DNA of 64,000 nt, taken from contig MFTV01000010.1 in NCBI GenBank assembly GCA_001785445.1, positions 101,566 to 165,565 of the forward strand. Direction: 5' to 3'. This DNA is from Candidatus Nomurabacteria bacterium RIFCSPHIGHO2_02_40_30. GTDB taxonomy: Bacteria; Patescibacteriota; Minisyncoccia; Phycocordibacterales; UBA9973. The notes beneath the pieces were generated by a model. That model saw only the letters and a program-made list of their open reading frames with translations. It did not search any database and was not told where the DNA came from. Position 1 is the first letter of the stretch. Every line of letters starts with the position of its first letter. The position numbers were made by a program, and so were the translations under genes. Shown here piece by piece: positions 786-9,319 of the stretch.

Positions 786-846
786 TTATATTTATGAACA
801 CTTTTAAAAATTATACATATAATGCATTTGGACAGCGATAAAAGTT

Positions 847-3090
847 ATGAAATATATTTTTGCCATTATTGGTAGTGTGGTTGTAGCTGTGAGCTTAGTC
901 GCCCTTGGATTTAATATCAGACAAGTGGATCAAGAAAGAGCTACTTTAACGACCAACTTAGAACAACGAGCTTCTTTGCTTGCCGACAGTTTAAAAGAAT
1001 CTGTTGAGCCTTATTATGCTAATTCTATCCAATCCTCTTTCCAAGCTTCCCTTCAAAAGGTGGTCAATAAATTTGCAAATCGTGAACGCTTAGCTGGCAT
1101 AGCTCTTTATGATAATAAAGGAATACTATTAGCTACTTCTTCAGGACTACCAAAAGCCATAATTGAAAATACAAAAATTGTAGCCGAGGCCATGGACAGC
1201 AACACATCAAATAATGATTTTTTTGATACTGAAGGAGAGGACCGTTACGTGCATGTTGACCCTCTGCACAATGATGAAAGTATAGTTGGGGCACTCATGG
1301 TGGTTCAAAACGCCGGATATATAAATGCAAGAATTGGAGAAATATGGAGAGGAAATTTATTGAGATTACTGATCCAAGTAATAATATTTTCAATAACCAT
1401 TTTCATAATTTTGAGATTTTTTGTTTTTCGTCAAGTTATTCGCTTTGTAGAATCCGTGAAAAAAATTAGAATGGGCGAAGGTAAGGAAAGTTTCAAAGAT
1501 GAAGGTAAATATTCCTTTTTTACCCCGCTTGCAAAAGAAATTACTCATATTACAAAAAGTTTATCACAGGCGCGTTTGTCGGCTCAAGAGGAAGCCCGAA
1601 TGCGTCTGGAAAAACTTGATAGCCCATGGACATCTGAACGTCTTTCGGAATTCATAAAAGCCACTTTAAAAGAGAGACCTATTTTTGTGGTATCTAATCG
1701 TGAACCCTATGAACATTATACTAACTCAAAAGGTGAAGTAAGTTATCGAGTTCCTGCTGGCGGAATTGTCACCGCTATTGAACCAGTGATGGTGGCTTGC
1801 AAAGGTACTTGGATTGCTTGGGGCAGTGGAAATGCAGACAAGACAGTTGTTGATAAAGATAATAAAATTAAAGTTCCTCCCCATGAACCAAAATACACTC
1901 TAAAAAGGGTTTGGCTTTCAGACGAAGAAGTGACTGGTTACTATAATGGATTTTCCAATGAAGCAATGTATCCTCTTTGTCTGATGGCACATACTCGTCC
2001 ACTCTTTAGAAAAGAGAACTGGCAAGAGTACAAAAAAGTAAATGGCATATTTGCAAAAAATGTACTCGCAGAGATAAGAGATGTTCAAAATCCTCTTGTA
2101 TTAATTCAAGACTATCATTTAGCGCTTCTACCACAAATAATAAAGAAAAGTAGACCAGATGCTCAAATTGGAATATTCTGGCATGTGCCTTGGCCAAGTC
2201 CTGAAGCTTTTAGTGTTTGTCCGTGGCGTAAAGAAATATTACAAGGAATGCTGGGTGCTGATATTGTAGGTTTTCATATTCAACAGTTTTGTAATAATTT
2301 TATAAATACTGTCGGCAAGGAAATGGAATCTAGATGTGACCTTGAGCAATTTTCAGTAACATATCAAAATCATACCAGTCATATAAAATCATTTCCGATT
2401 GGTATTGCCTTTACTGGTGGAAATGATGATGTAACATTTGATCCGAATGTCAGTAAAAATCTTTTAGAAAAATTAGGAATACATACTAAACATATTGGCT
2501 TGGGAGTTGATCGTCTAGACTATACAAAAGGGCTTTTAGAAAGGTTTAAAGCCTTGGAATTTTTCTTTGACACCTATCCAACTTACAAAAATAATTTTAC
2601 TTTTTTACAAATAGCATCTCCGAGTAGGGAAAGTGTTCCTAAGTATAAGCAATTTAATGCAGATGTGACAAAAGAAGTTGAACGTATAAATACTAAGTTC
2701 AAAACAAAAAATTGGCAACCCATCGTTCTACTTAAAGAATATCATTCACACGAAGAACTGGATCCATTATTTAAGATTGCCAATGTATGTATGGTAACTT
2801 CACTACATGATGGCATGAACTTGGTAGCTAAGGAATATATCGCCGCCCGAGATAAAGAAGATGGCGTTTTGATTCTAAGTCAATTTGCTGGTGCTGTGCG
2901 AGATCTTAAGGGTGCTTTAATAATAAACCCATACAGCGCAGAAGAAACATCAGAAGCAATAAATACAGCTCTCAATATGGCATTACTAGAACAACAAAGA
3001 CGAATGAAGAAAATGCGTGAATCTATTAAAAATTATAATATTTATCGTTGGTCTGCAGAATTTATCAAAGCAGTTACGAGTCTAAGTTAA
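847..3090 (+). CDS. otsA: Membrane-anchored sensor-HAMP domain fused to alpha,alpha-trehalose-phosphate synthase (GT20, OtsA)
   Basis: N-terminal ~270 aa: TM helix (res 4-23), ~150-aa extracytoplasmic domain, second TM (res ~172-195), then a HAMP-like linker. C-terminal ~470 aa is OtsA, with motifs FVVSNREPYEH, GYYNGFSNEAMYPLCLMAHTRP, LVLIQDYHLALLP and IGIFWHVPWPSPE. Confidence 0.8.
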   Translation: MKYIFAIIGSVVVAVSLVALGFNIRQVDQERATLTTNLEQRASLLADSLKESVEPYYANSIQSSFQASLQKVVNKFANRERLAGIALYDNKGILLATSSGLPKAIIENTKIVAEAMDSNTSNNDFFDTEGEDRYVHVDPLHNDESIVGALMVVQNAGYINARIGEIWRGNLLRLLIQVIIFSITIFIILRFFVFRQVIRFVESVKKIRMGEGKESFKDEGKYSFFTPLAKEITHITKSLSQARLSAQEEARMRLEKLDSPWTSERLSEFIKATLKERPIFVVSNREPYEHYTNSKGEVSYRVPAGGIVTAIEPVMVACKGTWIAWGSGNADKTVVDKDNKIKVPPHEPKYTLKRVWLSDEEVTGYYNGFSNEAMYPLCLMAHTRPLFRKENWQEYKKVNGIFAKNVLAEIRDVQNPLVLIQDYHLALLPQIIKKSRPDAQIGIFWHVPWPSPEAFSVCPWRKEILQGMLGADIVGFHIQQFCNNFINTVGKEMESRCDLEQFSVTYQNHTSHIKSFPIGIAFTGGNDDVTFDPNVSKNLLEKLGIHTKHIGLGVDRLDYTKGLLERFKALEFFFDTYPTYKNNFTFLQIASPSRESVPKYKQFNADVTKEVERINTKFKTKNWQPIVLLKEYHSHEELDPLFKIANVCMVTSLHDGMNLVAKEYIAARDKEDGVLILSQFAGAVRDLKGALIINPYSAEETSEAINTALNMALLEQQRRMKKMRESIKNYNIYRWSAEFIKAVTSLS

Positions 3091-3093
3091 AAT

Positions 3094-3858
3094 ATGAAAT
3101 ATGTTTTTAAAGATCTTGCAAATATCAAAAAGAAACTACAGGAATCAAATTTTGTCTTGTTGCTTGATTTTGATTTGACACTTTCTCCACTTGCCAAGAA
3201 TCCCGCCAAGGCAATTCTTCCTAACGATACAAGAATTTTATTAAAAAAACTTTCAAAATATATTCATATCGCAGTTATTACTGGCAGGACCATAAAAGAT
3301 ATAAAAAAAAGAATTAAGCTCAACAGCTTAACATACGTAGGTAATCACGGATTGGAATATGAAGTCGGGGGTGTTGCTAGAAGCAGTCAATTATTAGTTG
3401 AATCTAAAAAAGGATTAAAAGATATAAAAAAGAAATTTTTAAATATAAAAAGAAAATATTCTGGTGTACTTATCGAAGACAAGAAACTTGGCCTCGCTTT
3501 ACATTATCGACTACTTTTGTCCCAAGATAAGTTTGCGTTTATGGCGGATATTAAAAAAATCCAAACAGAAATAAAAAATTATGGTCTTCGTGGAATCCTT
3601 TATAAAAGAACCCTAGAGGTAAGACCGGAGACAAAAGAAGACAAAGGCACAGCTTCGCTGCTCATACTTAAAAAATTTGGCAATCCTAAACAAGTAATTT
3701 ATATAGGAGACGGCAAAACAGACGAAGATGCGTTTCGCGCGTTACCTAAAGGTATAACTATCAGGGTAGGAAAATCCAAACATAGTGTTGCTGAATATTA
3801 TGTAAATAGTACGAAAGAAGTAAAAAAATTTCTCGTTTGGCTATTATATATAGTATAA
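3094..3858 (+). CDS. otsB: Trehalose-6-phosphate phosphatase (HAD-IIB, OtsB)
   Basis: HAD motif I 'LLLDFDLTLSP' and C-terminal 'GDGKTDEDAF'. Sits 4 bp after otsA, so they form an operon. Confidence 0.8.
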   Translation: MKYVFKDLANIKKKLQESNFVLLLDFDLTLSPLAKNPAKAILPNDTRILLKKLSKYIHIAVITGRTIKDIKKRIKLNSLTYVGNHGLEYEVGGVARSSQLLVESKKGLKDIKKKFLNIKRKYSGVLIEDKKLGLALHYRLLLSQDKFAFMADIKKIQTEIKNYGLRGILYKRTLEVRPETKEDKGTASLLILKKFGNPKQVIYIGDGKTDEDAFRALPKGITIRVGKSKHSVAEYYVNSTKEVKKFLVWLLYIV

Positions 3859-3877: not shown

Positions 3878-4150
3878 ATGGAAGAAAGAATTCAAAATTT
3901 AGAAAAAGAAGTTGAATTACTCAAAGAGAGAAATTTAAGAGTGGAGAGTGAAAAGGCTTGGGAAGTAAGCTTAACCAGACGATTATTTATTGCAATTAGC
4001 ACATATATCATTGCTGGTGTTTGGCTTATCGTAATTAATGACAGCTTTCCTTGGCTCAAAGCATTTGTGCCGGCAGTAGGCTATTTGTTTTCTACTCTTT
4101 CTTTGCCCTTTATCAAAAAATGGTGGATTAAAAATCAAAGTAAAAGATAG
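3878..4150 (+). CDS. Hypothetical small membrane protein (N-terminal coiled coil plus two TM helices)
   Basis: ATG at 3878; hydrophobic segments. No recognisable family. Confidence 0.35.
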   Translation: MEERIQNLEKEVELLKERNLRVESEKAWEVSLTRRLFIAISTYIIAGVWLIVINDSFPWLKAFVPAVGYLFSTLSLPFIKKWWIKNQSKR

Positions 4151-4154
4151 TTTC

Positions 4155-4493
4155 CTACTCTCCTTTAAAAGACTGCAGGACAGCGCTTACGACGGCAAGC
4201 ACAATGCCGAAGAGGAATGCTGACAAAAAGCCATCTACTGCAAATCCTGGCACTACGTAGGCTGCAAGCATTATCAAGATGCCATTTATGACTAAGACAA
4301 AAAGTCCAAGCGTCAGAACAGTAAGAGGTAAAGTGAACATTATCAGTATTGGACGCAAGAAAACATTAATAACTCCTAGCACCACAGCTACGATCAATGC
4401 TGACAAAAAGCCATCGACATGCACTCCGGGCAAAACATATGCACTTATTAATATTGCGAGAGCCGACACAACCCAATGTATAATTGTTTTCAT
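4155..4493 (-). CDS. DUF360 / phage-holin-4-like 4-TM membrane protein
   Basis: Internal duplication 'AYVLPGVHVDGFLSALIVAVVLGVIN' / 'AYVVPGFAVDGFLSAFLFGIVLAVVS'. Overlaps the miaA stop by 4 nt (same operon). Confidence 0.55.
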   Translation of the reverse strand: MKTIIHWVVSALAILISAYVLPGVHVDGFLSALIVAVVLGVINVFLRPILIMFTLPLTVLTLGLFVLVINGILIMLAAYVVPGFAVDGFLSAFLFGIVLAVVSAVLQSFKGE

Positions 4494-5368: not shown

Positions 5369-6697
5369 CTAAATTCTTTTGATGTCGGCGCCTAGAGCAT
5401 TTAGTTTTTCGACTATGTTTTCATATCCTCGGTCAATGTGATTTGCAGGATCGTTTATAATACTTTTCCCCGGAGCCACCAAACTAGCAAGCAACATATC
5501 TATGCCCGCACGAACATCGTGAGAATTCAATTGACTTGCTTTAAACTTCGTAGGCCCATGTACTTTGGCGCCATAAGTTTCTTTCTTACTGTATTCAGAA
5601 TTATTGAAATTATAATATTTCGCCCCATATCCTTTTGGATGAAAAAGTTCATATCTTAACCCCATTTTTTTTAATTCTCCCAAATATCTCCACCTAGTTT
5701 CAAAAATTCTTTCATGGATAGTTGATTTACCTTTGGCCATATGAGCAAGTAGCAATGTCATGATTGGTTGCCAATCTGTCATGAAGCCTGGATACCAGTC
5801 AGTCACGATTTCTAAGGTTTTTAGTGGTTTGTGGATTTTTTTTATTTTCGCAACATTATTTTTAAAATCAATATCTACGCCTATTTTCTTTAAATCCCCA
5901 ATTAACGGCTCCAACAATTTTTTGTTTGCGTTTTTAACTGCAACTTTTCCACCAGTCATAATAGAAAGAATAATAGCGGTAGCCGCTTCCAAGCGATCAT
6001 AAATTGAAAAAGTTTTAGTTCCACGAAGAAAAGGTTTTACTCCAGTTATTTCTATTACTCTGGGCTCAATTCTTTTTATTTTAGCCCCCATGTCATTCAA
6101 ACATTTTATTAAATTATCAACTTCTGGTTCTGCCGCTGCGTTTTTAAGGACAACTTTTCCTCTGTTGAAAACTGAAGCCAAAATTAAATTTTCTGTTCCG
6201 CAATGAGTATTTTTTTCAAAAGTATAAGTGACGGATTTAGGTCTAGTTGGCATTGAAATTTCCATCACATTATTTTTTTCTTTTTTTATCACCCCCCCAA
6301 GAGCTTTAATACCTTGCAAATGTCTATTGATTGGTCTTTTGCCGATAGCGTCCCCTCTGATTGGATGAAAAGTTACTTTGCCTGTTCTAGCAAGTGTGGC
6401 GCCGATAAAAAGTACAGATTGTCGAGCGGACATTGATTCAAGGGGTATTTCAGAAGAATTGATATATTTGCTTTCAACTTCGATTGAATTTTTACCCGTA
6501 AATCTTACTTTGCATCCAAGTGAAGTGAGTGTATCGATAGTTCTGTAAGTGTCAGAAATTCTTGGAATATTATAAAAAAAACACTTTTCTTTACTAAGAA
6601 GAGCGGCAATTGGAAGTTTCGGACCCGCATTTTTTGCCCCAGAAACAACATAAGTTCCTTTTAATTTTTTTCCACCCCATACAATAAATTGACTCAT
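5369..6697 (-). CDS. murA: UDP-N-acetylglucosamine 1-carboxyvinyltransferase
   Basis: MurA-like sequence starting MSQFIVWGGKKLKGTYVVSGAKNA. The ATG at 6695-6697 is used because the longer ORF-track start (6820) runs through the tRNA-Leu gene. Confidence 0.85.
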   Translation of the reverse strand: MSQFIVWGGKKLKGTYVVSGAKNAGPKLPIAALLSKEKCFFYNIPRISDTYRTIDTLTSLGCKVRFTGKNSIEVESKYINSSEIPLESMSARQSVLFIGATLARTGKVTFHPIRGDAIGKRPINRHLQGIKALGGVIKKEKNNVMEISMPTRPKSVTYTFEKNTHCGTENLILASVFNRGKVVLKNAAAEPEVDNLIKCLNDMGAKIKRIEPRVIEITGVKPFLRGTKTFSIYDRLEAATAIILSIMTGGKVAVKNANKKLLEPLIGDLKKIGVDIDFKNNVAKIKKIHKPLKTLEIVTDWYPGFMTDWQPIMTLLLAHMAKGKSTIHERIFETRWRYLGELKKMGLRYELFHPKGYGAKYYNFNNSEYSKKETYGAKVHGPTKFKASQLNSHDVRAGIDMLLASLVAPGKSIINDPANHIDRGYENIVEKLNALGADIKRI

Positions 6698-6699
6698 AG

Positions 6700-6781
6700 T
6701 GCCGGAGGGGAGAGTCGAACTCCCACGTCTTGCGACACGCGATTTTGAGTCGCGCATGACTACCAATTCCATCACTCCGGC
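6700..6781 (-). tRNA. trnL: tRNA-Leu (anticodon CAA), long variable arm
   Basis: Minus-strand reading GCCGGAGTGATGGAATTGGTAGTCATGCGCGACTCAAAATCGCGTGTCGCAAGACGTGGGAGTTCGACTCTCCCCTCCGGCA. Anticodon stem cgcga/tcgcg, loop ctCAAaa, T-loop GGTTCGA equivalent. Confidence 0.8.
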
Positions 6782-6856
6782 GAATCCACACATTCTACAC
6801 AAACTTATACCTAAAATCAATTTCTAAAATAATTTTTATTATGCTAAAATTACCTC

Positions 6857-7843: not shown

Positions 7844-9319
7844 TTAGGATGTGTTACGGCCAAGGGATTTTAGTCTAGTCAGCAAACTGTTTTTCTCCAA
7901 ATAAGACCTTATATGCTTTTTGGCAATTGTTGTTTTGGCGTATTCCAGCCATTTACTGGAAGGGTGCGCATCTTTTTTCGTAACTATCTCTACAATATCT
8001 CTATTTTTTAGTTTTGAAGAAATAAGGGACATTTTGCCATTTATCTTAACTCCGGAAATATGATTGCCGATATCAGAATGGACAGAGTAAGCGAAATCAA
8101 CCGGACTTGAATCTTCCGGCAAATCTATGACATCTCCTCTCGGCGTAAAAATAAAGATACGATCGTTGAAAAAATCCATCTTTAGATGTTCTAGAAATTT
8201 TTTCGGTTCATCCAAAGTAGAGTTGAAATTTTTTAATTCCTCGATCCATTTAAATTGAGATTTGTCATTCACAGCTTTCTTATAGAGACTTTCTTTGTAG
8301 GCAAAGTGCGCCGCGATACCATAAGCCGCCTCGGCATGCATTTCTTTCGTCCTTATTTGGATTTCTACGATTCCGCCTGAACCAGTGAAAATGGTGGTGT
8401 GAATGGAACGATAGCCGTTTGGCTTTGGTAAGGCTATGTAGTCTTTGATTCTGCTTGGGAGCGGAGTCCAGAGAGCATGGATTATACCCAGCACCCTATA
8501 ACATTCCTCAATATTTTCTACCACAACACGCAATGCCACAATGTCGTAGATCTTTTCTATGTCCATATTATATTTTAGGAGTTTTTTATATAAACTATAT
8601 TTGTGTTTTATGCGGTAACTGATTTCATCAACTTTAATTTTGTTTTTCTTGAGCTCTTTCTCAAGCTGTTCTTTTACTTCTTCCAGATATTTATGGTACT
8701 TTTCTTTTTTTTCTTTTATAATTTCTTCCACTTGAGCATATTCTTTTGGATAAGCATAAGGGAAAGCTTCATCTTCGAGTTCACCTTTTAATTTACCCAT
8801 TCCCAAGCGGTTGGCTAGTGGTGCGTATACTTCTATGCTCTCAACAGCAATTCTCTTCCTTTTGTCTTCACGTAAAAATGATAGCGTTCTTAAGTTGTGG
8901 AGCCTGTCGGCAAACTTTATTATAACCACGCGTAAATCGCTTGCCATAGCAACAAAGAACTTTCTCAAACTTTCTACATGCCTTTCGTGCCCGCGATATT
9001 TTAAAGTGCCCAATTTGGTAACGCCATTTATCAAAAAGACAATATCTTTACCAAATTCTTTTTCCAATTCCTCTTCTTTGGTTTTTGTGTCTTCTAGCAC
9101 ATCATGCAAGAGTCCAGCTACTATAGTAATAGTATCCATGCCTAATTTAGCCAAGATTTTTGTAGTTTCAAAAACATGAGTAAAGTATGGGTCTCCAGAG
9201 AGTCTTTTTTGCCCAGAATGGGCATTTAAAGCTATATCATAGGCTTTATTTATGAGTTCTTCCTCTTTTTTGCTCAACCCACCCAACATAAGATCTTTTA
9301 TTTCTTTGACGCTTGCCAT
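7844..9319 (-). CDS. relA: Bifunctional (p)ppGpp synthetase/hydrolase (RelA/SpoT homolog) with HD, synthetase and TGS domains; no ACT domain
   Basis: HD motif 'LLHDVLEDT', synthetase motif 'RIKDYIALPKPNGYRSIHTTIF', TGS-like C-terminus. Confidence 0.85.
   Translation of the reverse strand: MASVKEIKDLMLGGLSKKEEELINKAYDIALNAHSGQKRLSGDPYFTHVFETTKILAKLGMDTITIVAGLLHDVLEDTKTKEEELEKEFGKDIVFLINGVTKLGTLKYRGHERHVESLRKFFVAMASDLRVVIIKFADRLHNLRTLSFLREDKRKRIAVESIEVYAPLANRLGMGKLKGELEDEAFPYAYPKEYAQVEEIIKEKKEKYHKYLEEVKEQLEKELKKNKIKVDEISYRIKHKYSLYKKLLKYNMDIEKIYDIVALRVVVENIEECYRVLGIIHALWTPLPSRIKDYIALPKPNGYRSIHTTIFTGSGGIVEIQIRTKEMHAEAAYGIAAHFAYKESLYKKAVNDKSQFKWIEELKNFNSTLDEPKKFLEHLKMDFFNDRIFIFTPRGDVIDLPEDSSPVDFAYSVHSDIGNHISGVKINGKMSLISSKLKNRDIVEIVTKKDAHPSSKWLEYAKTTIAKKHIRSYLEKNSLLTRLKSLGRNTS

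Follow-up and report, generated by a model that had tools for sequence, protein, structure and literature searches.

A transmembrane Cache-HAMP-like module joined to a predicted trehalose-6-phosphate synthase in Patescibacteria and other phyla

Cache and HAMP modules are textbook inputs of kinases, chemoreceptors and nucleotide cyclases, and the known trehalose-6-phosphate (T6P) synthases of the OtsA/Tps1 type are soluble enzymes whose control is transcriptional or runs via cytoplasmic effectors. We describe a gene, here called sensor-OtsA, whose product appears to bring these two kinds of protein together. It lies in a 64,000-nucleotide stretch (the window) of contig MFTV01000010.1, positions 101,566 to 165,565, from Candidatus Nomurabacteria bacterium RIFCSPHIGHO2_02_40_30. 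The order of parts in the product is very probably a first transmembrane segment (TM1), a WalK-like single-Cache domain, a second transmembrane segment (TM2), a divergent HAMP, a linker helix, a coupling helix and an intact GT20 glycosyltransferase. Taken as a whole, the product is best explained, and rather better than evenly so in our estimate, as a bitopic membrane receptor-enzyme.

The input half would work like that of the kinase WalK (YycG/VicK), to which it is distantly homologous and in which TM1, an extracellular Cache/PAS-like domain, TM2 and HAMP follow one another. It differs from WalK in its output, where GT20 stands in place of PAS-DHp-CA with neither phosphotransfer nor a response regulator, in a far more divergent HAMP, and in its hosts, which are Patescibacteria and other non-Firmicutes. 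The output half shares GT-B fold, motifs and partnership with otsB with soluble OtsA/Tps1 enzymes (E. coli OtsA, 1gz5/1uqu; Candida Tps1, 5hut; M. thermoresistibile OtsA, 5jij), from which it is set apart by the 278 residues of membrane sensor module at its N-terminus and by a WTxERL helix peculiar to the family. In Cache-HAMP-GGDEF/EAL proteins, HAMP-adenylyl cyclases (Rv3645) and HAMP-PP2C proteins, one polypeptide likewise carries a sensor, transmembrane segments and a HAMP that drive a cytoplasmic catalytic domain. However, the outputs of Cache/HAMP receptor enzymes make or destroy signalling molecules through dimer geometry, whereas the output here is biosynthetic, with a single-chain active site. 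The osmosensing transporters ProP, BetP and OpuA combine sensor and effector of solute accumulation in one membrane protein and act post-translationally. With these the likeness is a functional analogy only: the folds are unrelated, solutes are imported and not synthesized, sensing uses cytoplasmic or lipid-facing elements, and there is no Cache-HAMP. A further relative, described below, carries a homologous module with a GCS2/YbdK-like ligase as output.

Our full-text literature search found no description of a sensor-fused OtsA, an absence that is no proof. In the survey by Upadhyay et al. 2016 (PMC4822843), Cache domains were identified exclusively in proteins with output signalling domains, with SMP_2 members, which have no known output domain, as a noted exception, and the Cache models were built only from such signalling-output proteins. 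For that reason the survey would miss the sensor-OtsA family by design. Moreover, where the sources give a name at all, it is 'trehalose-6-phosphate synthase' or 'hypothetical protein' only, which hides the sensor half from annotation and from signalling censuses based on output domains. Judged from sequence, the family seems to consist of known parts in a new, widespread combination with a new class of output.

Domain order of the sensor-OtsA protein

The gene and the predicted parts of its product, with the adjoining otsB, are as follows (window coordinates, strand, description).

847..3090, +, sensor-OtsA gene, entire; single ORF with full-length homologues at 55-93% identity; full-length AlphaFold2 (AF2) model with a mean predicted local distance difference test score (pLDDT) of 84
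853..912, +, TM1 (residues 3-22); hydropathy windows above 1.5; opens a long helix, 2-58, in AF2 models
919..1350, +, single-Cache/PDC sensor domain (residues ~25-168) with the invariant helix motif L45-x2-S48-L49-x-E51-S52-x-E54-P55
1354..1428, +, TM2 (residues ~170-194); hydropathy; unbroken helix 157-208 in AF2 models
1429..1575, +, divergent HAMP-like domain (residues ~195-243): first helix (AS1) 195-209, connector 210-226, second helix (AS2) 227-243
1576..1620, +, linker (signalling) helix extending AS2 (residues 244-258), conserved A246-x2-E249-A250-R251-x-R253-L-E-K; helix 223-256 in the full-length model
1627..1668, +, coupling helix (residues 261-274), W261-T262-x2-R265-L266; after a short break from the linker and directly before GT20 strand beta1
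1681..3075, +, GT20 catalytic domain of T6P synthase type (residues 279-743); Pfam PF00982, NCBIfam TIGR02400 and PDB matches
3094..3858, +, otsB, T6P phosphatase, 4 nt downstream of sensor-OtsA; Pfam Trehalose_PPase E 8e-33

The ORF opens with ATG and runs for 747 codons with zero internal stops, and its start codon is backed by N-termini kept among homologues (MKYIF/MRYIF). Kyte-Doolittle analysis in 19-residue windows gives exactly two hydrophobic segments, at residues ~3-22 and ~170-194. Because basic residues are bunched after TM2 (R190, R195, R199, K205, K206, R208), the intervening loop of ~145 residues is placed outside and GT20 in the cytoplasm. Everything after residue 195 is thus predicted to lie on the cytoplasmic side, the topology that an enzyme using nucleotide sugars needs. 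A preliminary description of this DNA had placed TM1, an extracytoplasmic domain of ~150 residues and TM2 before a full GT20 region, and both hydropathy and the Pfam match (residues 280-743) bear this out.

Residues ~25-168 fill the entire extracytoplasmic span between TM1 and TM2. An AF2 model of residues 1-278, built from a 19-sequence alignment (pLDDT 77), has the TM1 helix running to residue 58, then a helix, two strands, two short helices, three strands and a helix that continues through TM2 to 208; it thus predicts what marks Cache domains, a long helix at the N-terminus and after it a PAS-like alpha/beta core. A profile of 53 family N-termini, searched against PDB sequences, matches WalK sensor domains (E 2.5e-6 to 3.8e-5) and, more weakly, KinD (E 0.035). 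In the same 53 members, Pfam models of the Cache clan are matched by 36 (SMP_2), 20 (dCache_1, best E 1e-8), 16 (sCache_3_2) and 12 (Cache_WalK, best E 3.8e-6). SMP_2 is itself counted in the Cache superfamily (Upadhyay et al. 2016, PMC4822843). In the first helix, L45, S48, L49, E51, S52 and E54 are invariant in the 53 aligned sequences and P55 almost so. The modelled elements, the WalK profile matches and the Cache-clan matches in members together identify the predicted domain as a WalK-like single Cache sensor fold and no plain anchor. Identity to WalK is only 20%, a level from which no ligand can be deduced and over which function is not carried.

The segment after TM2 has the layout of a HAMP, about 50 residues directly after the membrane in the order helix, connector (in general ~14 residues), helix: in the AF2 models the TM2 helix ends at 208, a loop follows and a helix begins at 223-226. 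Profile comparison with hhalign aligned family residues 186-262 with ten textbook reference HAMPs, checked by Pfam (nine above the gathering cutoff), at Prob 94.6%, E 7e-8 and a score of 39.7 over 58 columns. In the controls, 200 column shuffles scored 9.8 +/- 2.1 (maximum 17.2; 0/200 reaching 39.7) and the reversed alignment 10.0. The register agrees with the HAMP consensus in the AS1 proline of the family, the connector glycine G210 and the AS2 core, the hydrophobic core positions of the two helices align, and conservation reaches 92-100% at G210 (92%), P227 and E231. By subgroup, the score is 36.1 for other Patescibacteria and 36.0 for non-CPR (candidate phyla radiation) phyla. Additionally, NCBIfam models of the kinases AtoS, CreC and PieS give weak co-linear matches over their TM2-HAMP region, and Pfam HAMP weakly matches 6 of the 53 members (best E 0.0016). 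The one reference below the Pfam HAMP cutoff of 25 was PhoQ at 23.8 bits, and since this HAMP is an accepted one, functional HAMPs may fall under the Pfam threshold. On sequence grounds, we take the segment next to the membrane to be a divergent HAMP that is secure for the family as a whole and degenerate in the lineage of the window. The peptide GEGKESFKDEGKYSFFTPLAKEITHITKSL, earlier quoted as a HAMP-like helix, is present at residues 210-239 but is not a single helix, corresponding instead to the HAMP connector plus AS2. The broader suggestion of an input module of histidine-kinase or chemoreceptor type holds up in the WalK profile matches and the family-level HAMP alignment. Neither a further HAMP nor a repeat of the module turned up when the entire window was searched.

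In the enzyme half, Pfam Glyco_transf_20 covers residues 280-743 at E 1.1e-122 and 410.6 bits (cutoff 32.5), spanning profile positions 4-471 of 473. Among NCBIfam models, bifunctional OtsA/B PRK14501 scores highest (481.6 bits), followed by OtsA TIGR02400 as the best single-function model (E 2e-133). Sequence matches in the PDB are Tps1 and OtsA at E 3e-81 to 1e-63 with 28-33% identity, the motifs aligning to Candida Tps1, and Foldseek gives TM-scores of 0.88-0.91 against OtsA/Tps1 structures. R285, G306, D422/H424, H446, R556, K561, R594, D655 and E663 are invariant or almost so in 65 homologues (R285 in 53 of the 65). We take these to be the counterparts of R9, the G22 loop, D130/H132, H154, R262, K267, R300, D361 and E369 of E. 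coli OtsA (Gibson et al. numbering), R285 being presumably the acceptor-site arginine that corresponds to Arg9. With its UDP-glucose and glucose-6-phosphate contact motifs intact, the domain is predicted to be a catalytically competent T6P synthase. Formation of T6P from NDP-glucose and glucose-6-phosphate is indirectly supported by the adjoining otsB, the likely functional partner, whose product clears the equivalog cutoff of the NCBIfam T6P phosphatase model TIGR00685 (128 bits vs 68).

Spread of the fusion, rigid spacing and re-use of the module

A scan with one genome per species found 102 loci that encode the N-terminal module, and 80 were retrieved for study. In 78 of the 80, module and GT20 share one reading frame. 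The two others (L026:966-2960 and L044:5001-7090) have the sensor-otsA frame in pieces, for which a pseudogene, an assembly error or a frameshift error is possible. At the protein level, more than 120 full-length clusters (~735-760 residues, 55-93% identity) were recovered, and an exhaustive hidden Markov model (HMM) search of 1.84 billion proteins gave 279 clusters at 50% identity with E<=1e-30. Because the HMM profile took in ~70 GT20 positions, plain GT20 proteins are probably among the 2681 found at 1e-3, and we used the 279 alone. Most hosts belong to the Patescibacteria (Nomura-, Paceibacterota, Kaiser-, Taylor-, Levy-, Davies-, Doudna-, Magasanik- and Gracilibacteria), joined by Acidobacteriota, Omnitrophota, Planctomycetota, Elusimicrobia, Verrucomicrobiota, Gemmatimonadota, Ignavibacteria and Dormiibacterota, about ten phyla in all. 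The N-terminal module of the window gene itself is 90-93% identical to genes in Nomurabacteria/Paceibacterota metagenome-assembled genomes. Since one ORF spans module and enzyme in so many loci and clusters, with a junction of invariant length, the fusion is no artefact; it is real and old, well beyond chance or assembly error. One homologue (P0043, 913 residues) carries an extra N-terminal extension of ~170 residues, its profile match beginning at residue 174.

The junction, residues 244-286, is the most conserved stretch of the N-terminal half. In the linker helix, A246, E249, A250, R251 and R253 are conserved at 91-100%, and in the coupling helix W261, T262, R265 and L266 are invariant among homologues. 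The coupling helix ends four residues ahead of strand beta1 and is modelled at pLDDT ~88 in the full-length protein, equal to the GT20 core. Alignment-based distances in 65 full-length homologues from all phyla are almost constant. In 64 of the 65, G148 and W167 are 19 residues apart, W167 and R190 (TM2) 23, and R190 and G210 (AS1) 20; in all 65, E231 and E249 are separated by 18 residues and W261 and E286 by 25. Between E249 and W261 (window nt 1591-1629) the distance is 12 residues in 43/65 and 11 in 22/65, the shorter form occurring in the non-CPR sequences of alignment A2; a one-residue change in a linker corresponds to a helical phase shift of ~100 degrees. Otherwise length varies only in the connector of the HAMP (18-22 residues) and in the loops of the Cache domain. 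Because the spacing is so rigid, we read it as that of a mechanical relay, which the pattern appears to fit better than a flexible tether.

Furthermore, a homologous module occurs on a second, unrelated enzyme. One 690-residue protein from the exhaustive HMM search (P0132) has the TM1-sCache-TM2-HAMP module followed by GCS2, a YbdK-like carboxylate-amine ligase, and no GT20. Its module aligns with that of the window protein at 33% identity (E 3e-40), and the alignment stops where AS2 ends. The architecture recurs in a small Patescibacteria-type clade of five clusters (P0132 and P0307-P0310), one member of which is a single ORF on 10 or more contigs that come from independent samples. Of the closest GCS2 relatives, which are found in Patescibacteria and DPANN archaea, more than 100 are soluble proteins of ~440-480 residues. 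The EEARxRLEK...WTxERL segment is found in the GT20 fusions only and is absent from the GCS2 fusions. Sensor-GCS2 genes lie at the following three loci.

L081:6001-8049, sensor-GCS2 fusion
L082:2119-4167, sensor-GCS2 fusion
L083:6001-8049, sensor-GCS2 fusion

Given that the same module is found on GT20 and on a GCS2 ligase, with the breakpoint just after AS2, it is portable: as its sequence indicates, it has been joined to at least two unrelated metabolic enzymes and behaves as an input module.

Proposed gating of the enzyme and competing explanations

How such a protein might work can be outlined by analogy. Like Cache-HAMP receptors elsewhere, sensor-OtsA would form a parallel homodimer. TM2 would shift when the Cache domain meets a stimulus, which could be a ligand or a cue of envelope, ionic or osmotic nature, and through the HAMP this shift would make the linker helix rotate or pack differently. 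The WTxERL helix would pack on the N-terminal Rossmann domain, R285 lying about ten residues past the helix. Since it ends near beta1 and R285, the coupling helix may alter glucose-6-phosphate binding, closure of the GT-B domains or the oligomeric state. T6P synthesis would go up or down as a result, and OtsB would complete trehalose. In net terms, an outside cue would set the synthesis of a compatible solute after translation, and neither a kinase nor a response regulator nor transcription would take part. By analogy with other receptor enzymes, we consider it slightly favoured that the protein functions as a signal-gated enzyme. The wider proposal, on which we are evenly balanced, is that it represents an undescribed class of transmembrane receptors with metabolic enzymes as output, in which a WalK-like Cache-HAMP module allosterically gates a GT-B glycosyltransferase (and, in the sister fusion, a GCS2 ligase), so that compatible-solute synthesis is set directly by a cue from outside the cell or from its envelope.

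Several points weigh against gating. Known HAMP outputs (kinases, cyclases and methyl-accepting chemotaxis proteins) need dimer geometry, whereas the GT20 active site sits within a single chain, and for this reason the coupling mechanism is without precedent and speculative. The HAMP is also at its least convincing where the window gene belongs: the Nomurabacteria-like subgroup reaches only 20.6 in hhalign (Prob 19%), the AS1 proline is present in 49% of the family and replaced by Gln196 in the window protein, Pfam HAMP (PF00672) gives no match to the window protein at E<=1, and family consensus sequences score 13.1-15.2 bits, under the Pfam cutoff of 25. The HAMP region has a pLDDT of 52-65 in the monomer models, which may be what is expected when a dimeric module is modelled as a monomer. 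In the Cache clan, the window protein stays under the Pfam gathering cutoffs of SMP_2 (19.8 bits, cutoff 28.9), sCache_3_2 (13.9, cutoff 28.4) and ArlS_N (14.9, cutoff 27). Profile searches, which the preliminary description had named among its checks, support Cache and HAMP at the family level while leaving the window protein itself below every Pfam sensor threshold. On the enzyme side, the OtsA model scores 445.3 bits, below its equivalog cutoff of 564.85, and because that cutoff is missed the exact donor and acceptor specificity is a matter of inference.

The strongest competitor, which we nevertheless hold to be unlikely, is that sensing has been lost and the module serves as a tether or scaffold, anchoring and dimerising OtsA at the membrane, for example near transporters or channels or so as to give trehalose synthesis a fixed place, with activity constitutive or controlled by substrate only. 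The degenerate HAMP of the window's subgroup, with its low hhalign score and its proline-to-glutamine exchange, would suit such a role, as would the lack of any Pfam sensor model above threshold on the window protein; to our knowledge, WalK-type Cache domains have few established ligands. An anchor, however, needs neither a folded Cache domain of 145 residues whose first-helix residues L45, S48, L49, E51, S52 and E54 are invariant across phyla nor invariant spacing through TM2, AS1, AS2 and linker, and the intact module has been re-used on a second, unrelated enzyme.

Less probable again is control by a partner: the extracytoplasmic domain would take its input from another protein of the membrane or wall, much as WalK does from WalH and WalI, or would report on wall or division status, and trehalose would be tied to envelope homeostasis and not to a chemical outside the cell. 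The WalK sensor is the closest relative in structure and sequence, and an FtsX-like neighbour in 7 related loci is weakly suggestive. Nonetheless, no conserved partner gene adjoins the window gene, nor does one do so consistently in relatives, and the low identity to WalK transfers no function.

We give still less credence to a different product, such as glucosylglycerol-phosphate or another sugar-phosphate, by which a different solute would be controlled. The missed OtsA cutoff (445 vs 565 bits) and a match to GgpS TIGR02398 at E 2e-95 leave some room for it, yet the OtsA and bifunctional OtsA/B models score highest, the top PDB matches are all T6P synthases, the contact motifs for glucose-6-phosphate and UDP-glucose are conserved, and a T6P phosphatase above its equivalog cutoff is encoded 4 nt downstream. 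Finally, a small membrane sensor gene and a soluble otsA merged by a missed stop or frameshift, a mis-fusion against which the preliminary description had cautioned, can be rejected as refuted for practical purposes, for although the region is broken up between frames in L026 and L044, the window has an uninterrupted ORF, as do 78 of 80 independently assembled genomes and more than 120 protein clusters, and the junction is conserved in sequence and invariant in length.

If an outside cue does gate sensor-OtsA, the transmembrane mechanics of Cache and HAMP can drive ordinary metabolism directly, beyond signalling outputs, and a protective sugar, trehalose, could be switched from outside without transcription. 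This would show how genome-reduced Patescibacteria meet stress without two-component systems. It would also provide a tractable HAMP-output system that is easily read out by enzyme assay (UDP release) and a route to what the ultra-small Patescibacteria sense at their surface.

Genes around sensor-OtsA

Two further features lie directly upstream of the gene.

713-785, tRNA-Trp, upstream of sensor-OtsA
795..823, +, predicted promoter-like site TGAACA-17-TATAAT between tRNA-Trp and the gene start; 10/12 consensus matches in a consensus scan, a match only

In the 80 related loci, the genes near sensor-OtsA include otsB (34 loci in this tally, and a downstream otsB homologue in 36 of the 80 by a separate count), a cation P-type ATPase (17), a TreT-like synthase (16), DUF5752 (10), an MGH1/trehalase-like hydrolase (7) and MscS (5); examples of such neighbours are L034:8438-10816, L078:7966-9204, L059:6264-6971, L029:2743-3951 and L064:4072-4977. 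Beside the window gene we found no cation P-type ATPase, TreT-like synthase, DUF5752, MGH1/trehalase-like hydrolase or MscS. The neighbours in relatives fit a compatible-solute or osmotic physiology, and they do not identify the signal.

Right after otsB, at 3878-4150 (+), lies a 90-residue ORF whose N-terminus is helical and charged and whose C-terminal half is hydrophobic; Pfam gives no match to it, and neither does tblastn in 83 related loci. It is followed at 4155-4493 (-), convergent with the otsA-otsB unit, by a gene for a 112-residue protein with four transmembrane segments that belongs to the Phage_holin_4_2 family (PF04020, E 6.5e-34). Both were considered as parts of the system and dropped, as neither is matched in the 83 related loci.

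Upstream, a small ORF at ~487-643 reads by eye as ribosomal protein L33. Further downstream, a listed 483-residue ORF with a TTG start at 5369-6820 (-) overlaps a tRNA-Leu gene (6699-6781, -), so its true start must be further downstream; by eye, its product has the look of a MurA-type enolpyruvyl transferase. Among the few regulatory genes here would be a 491-residue ORF at 7844-9319 (-), which by eye resembles a (p)ppGpp synthetase/hydrolase of the RelA/SpoT family.

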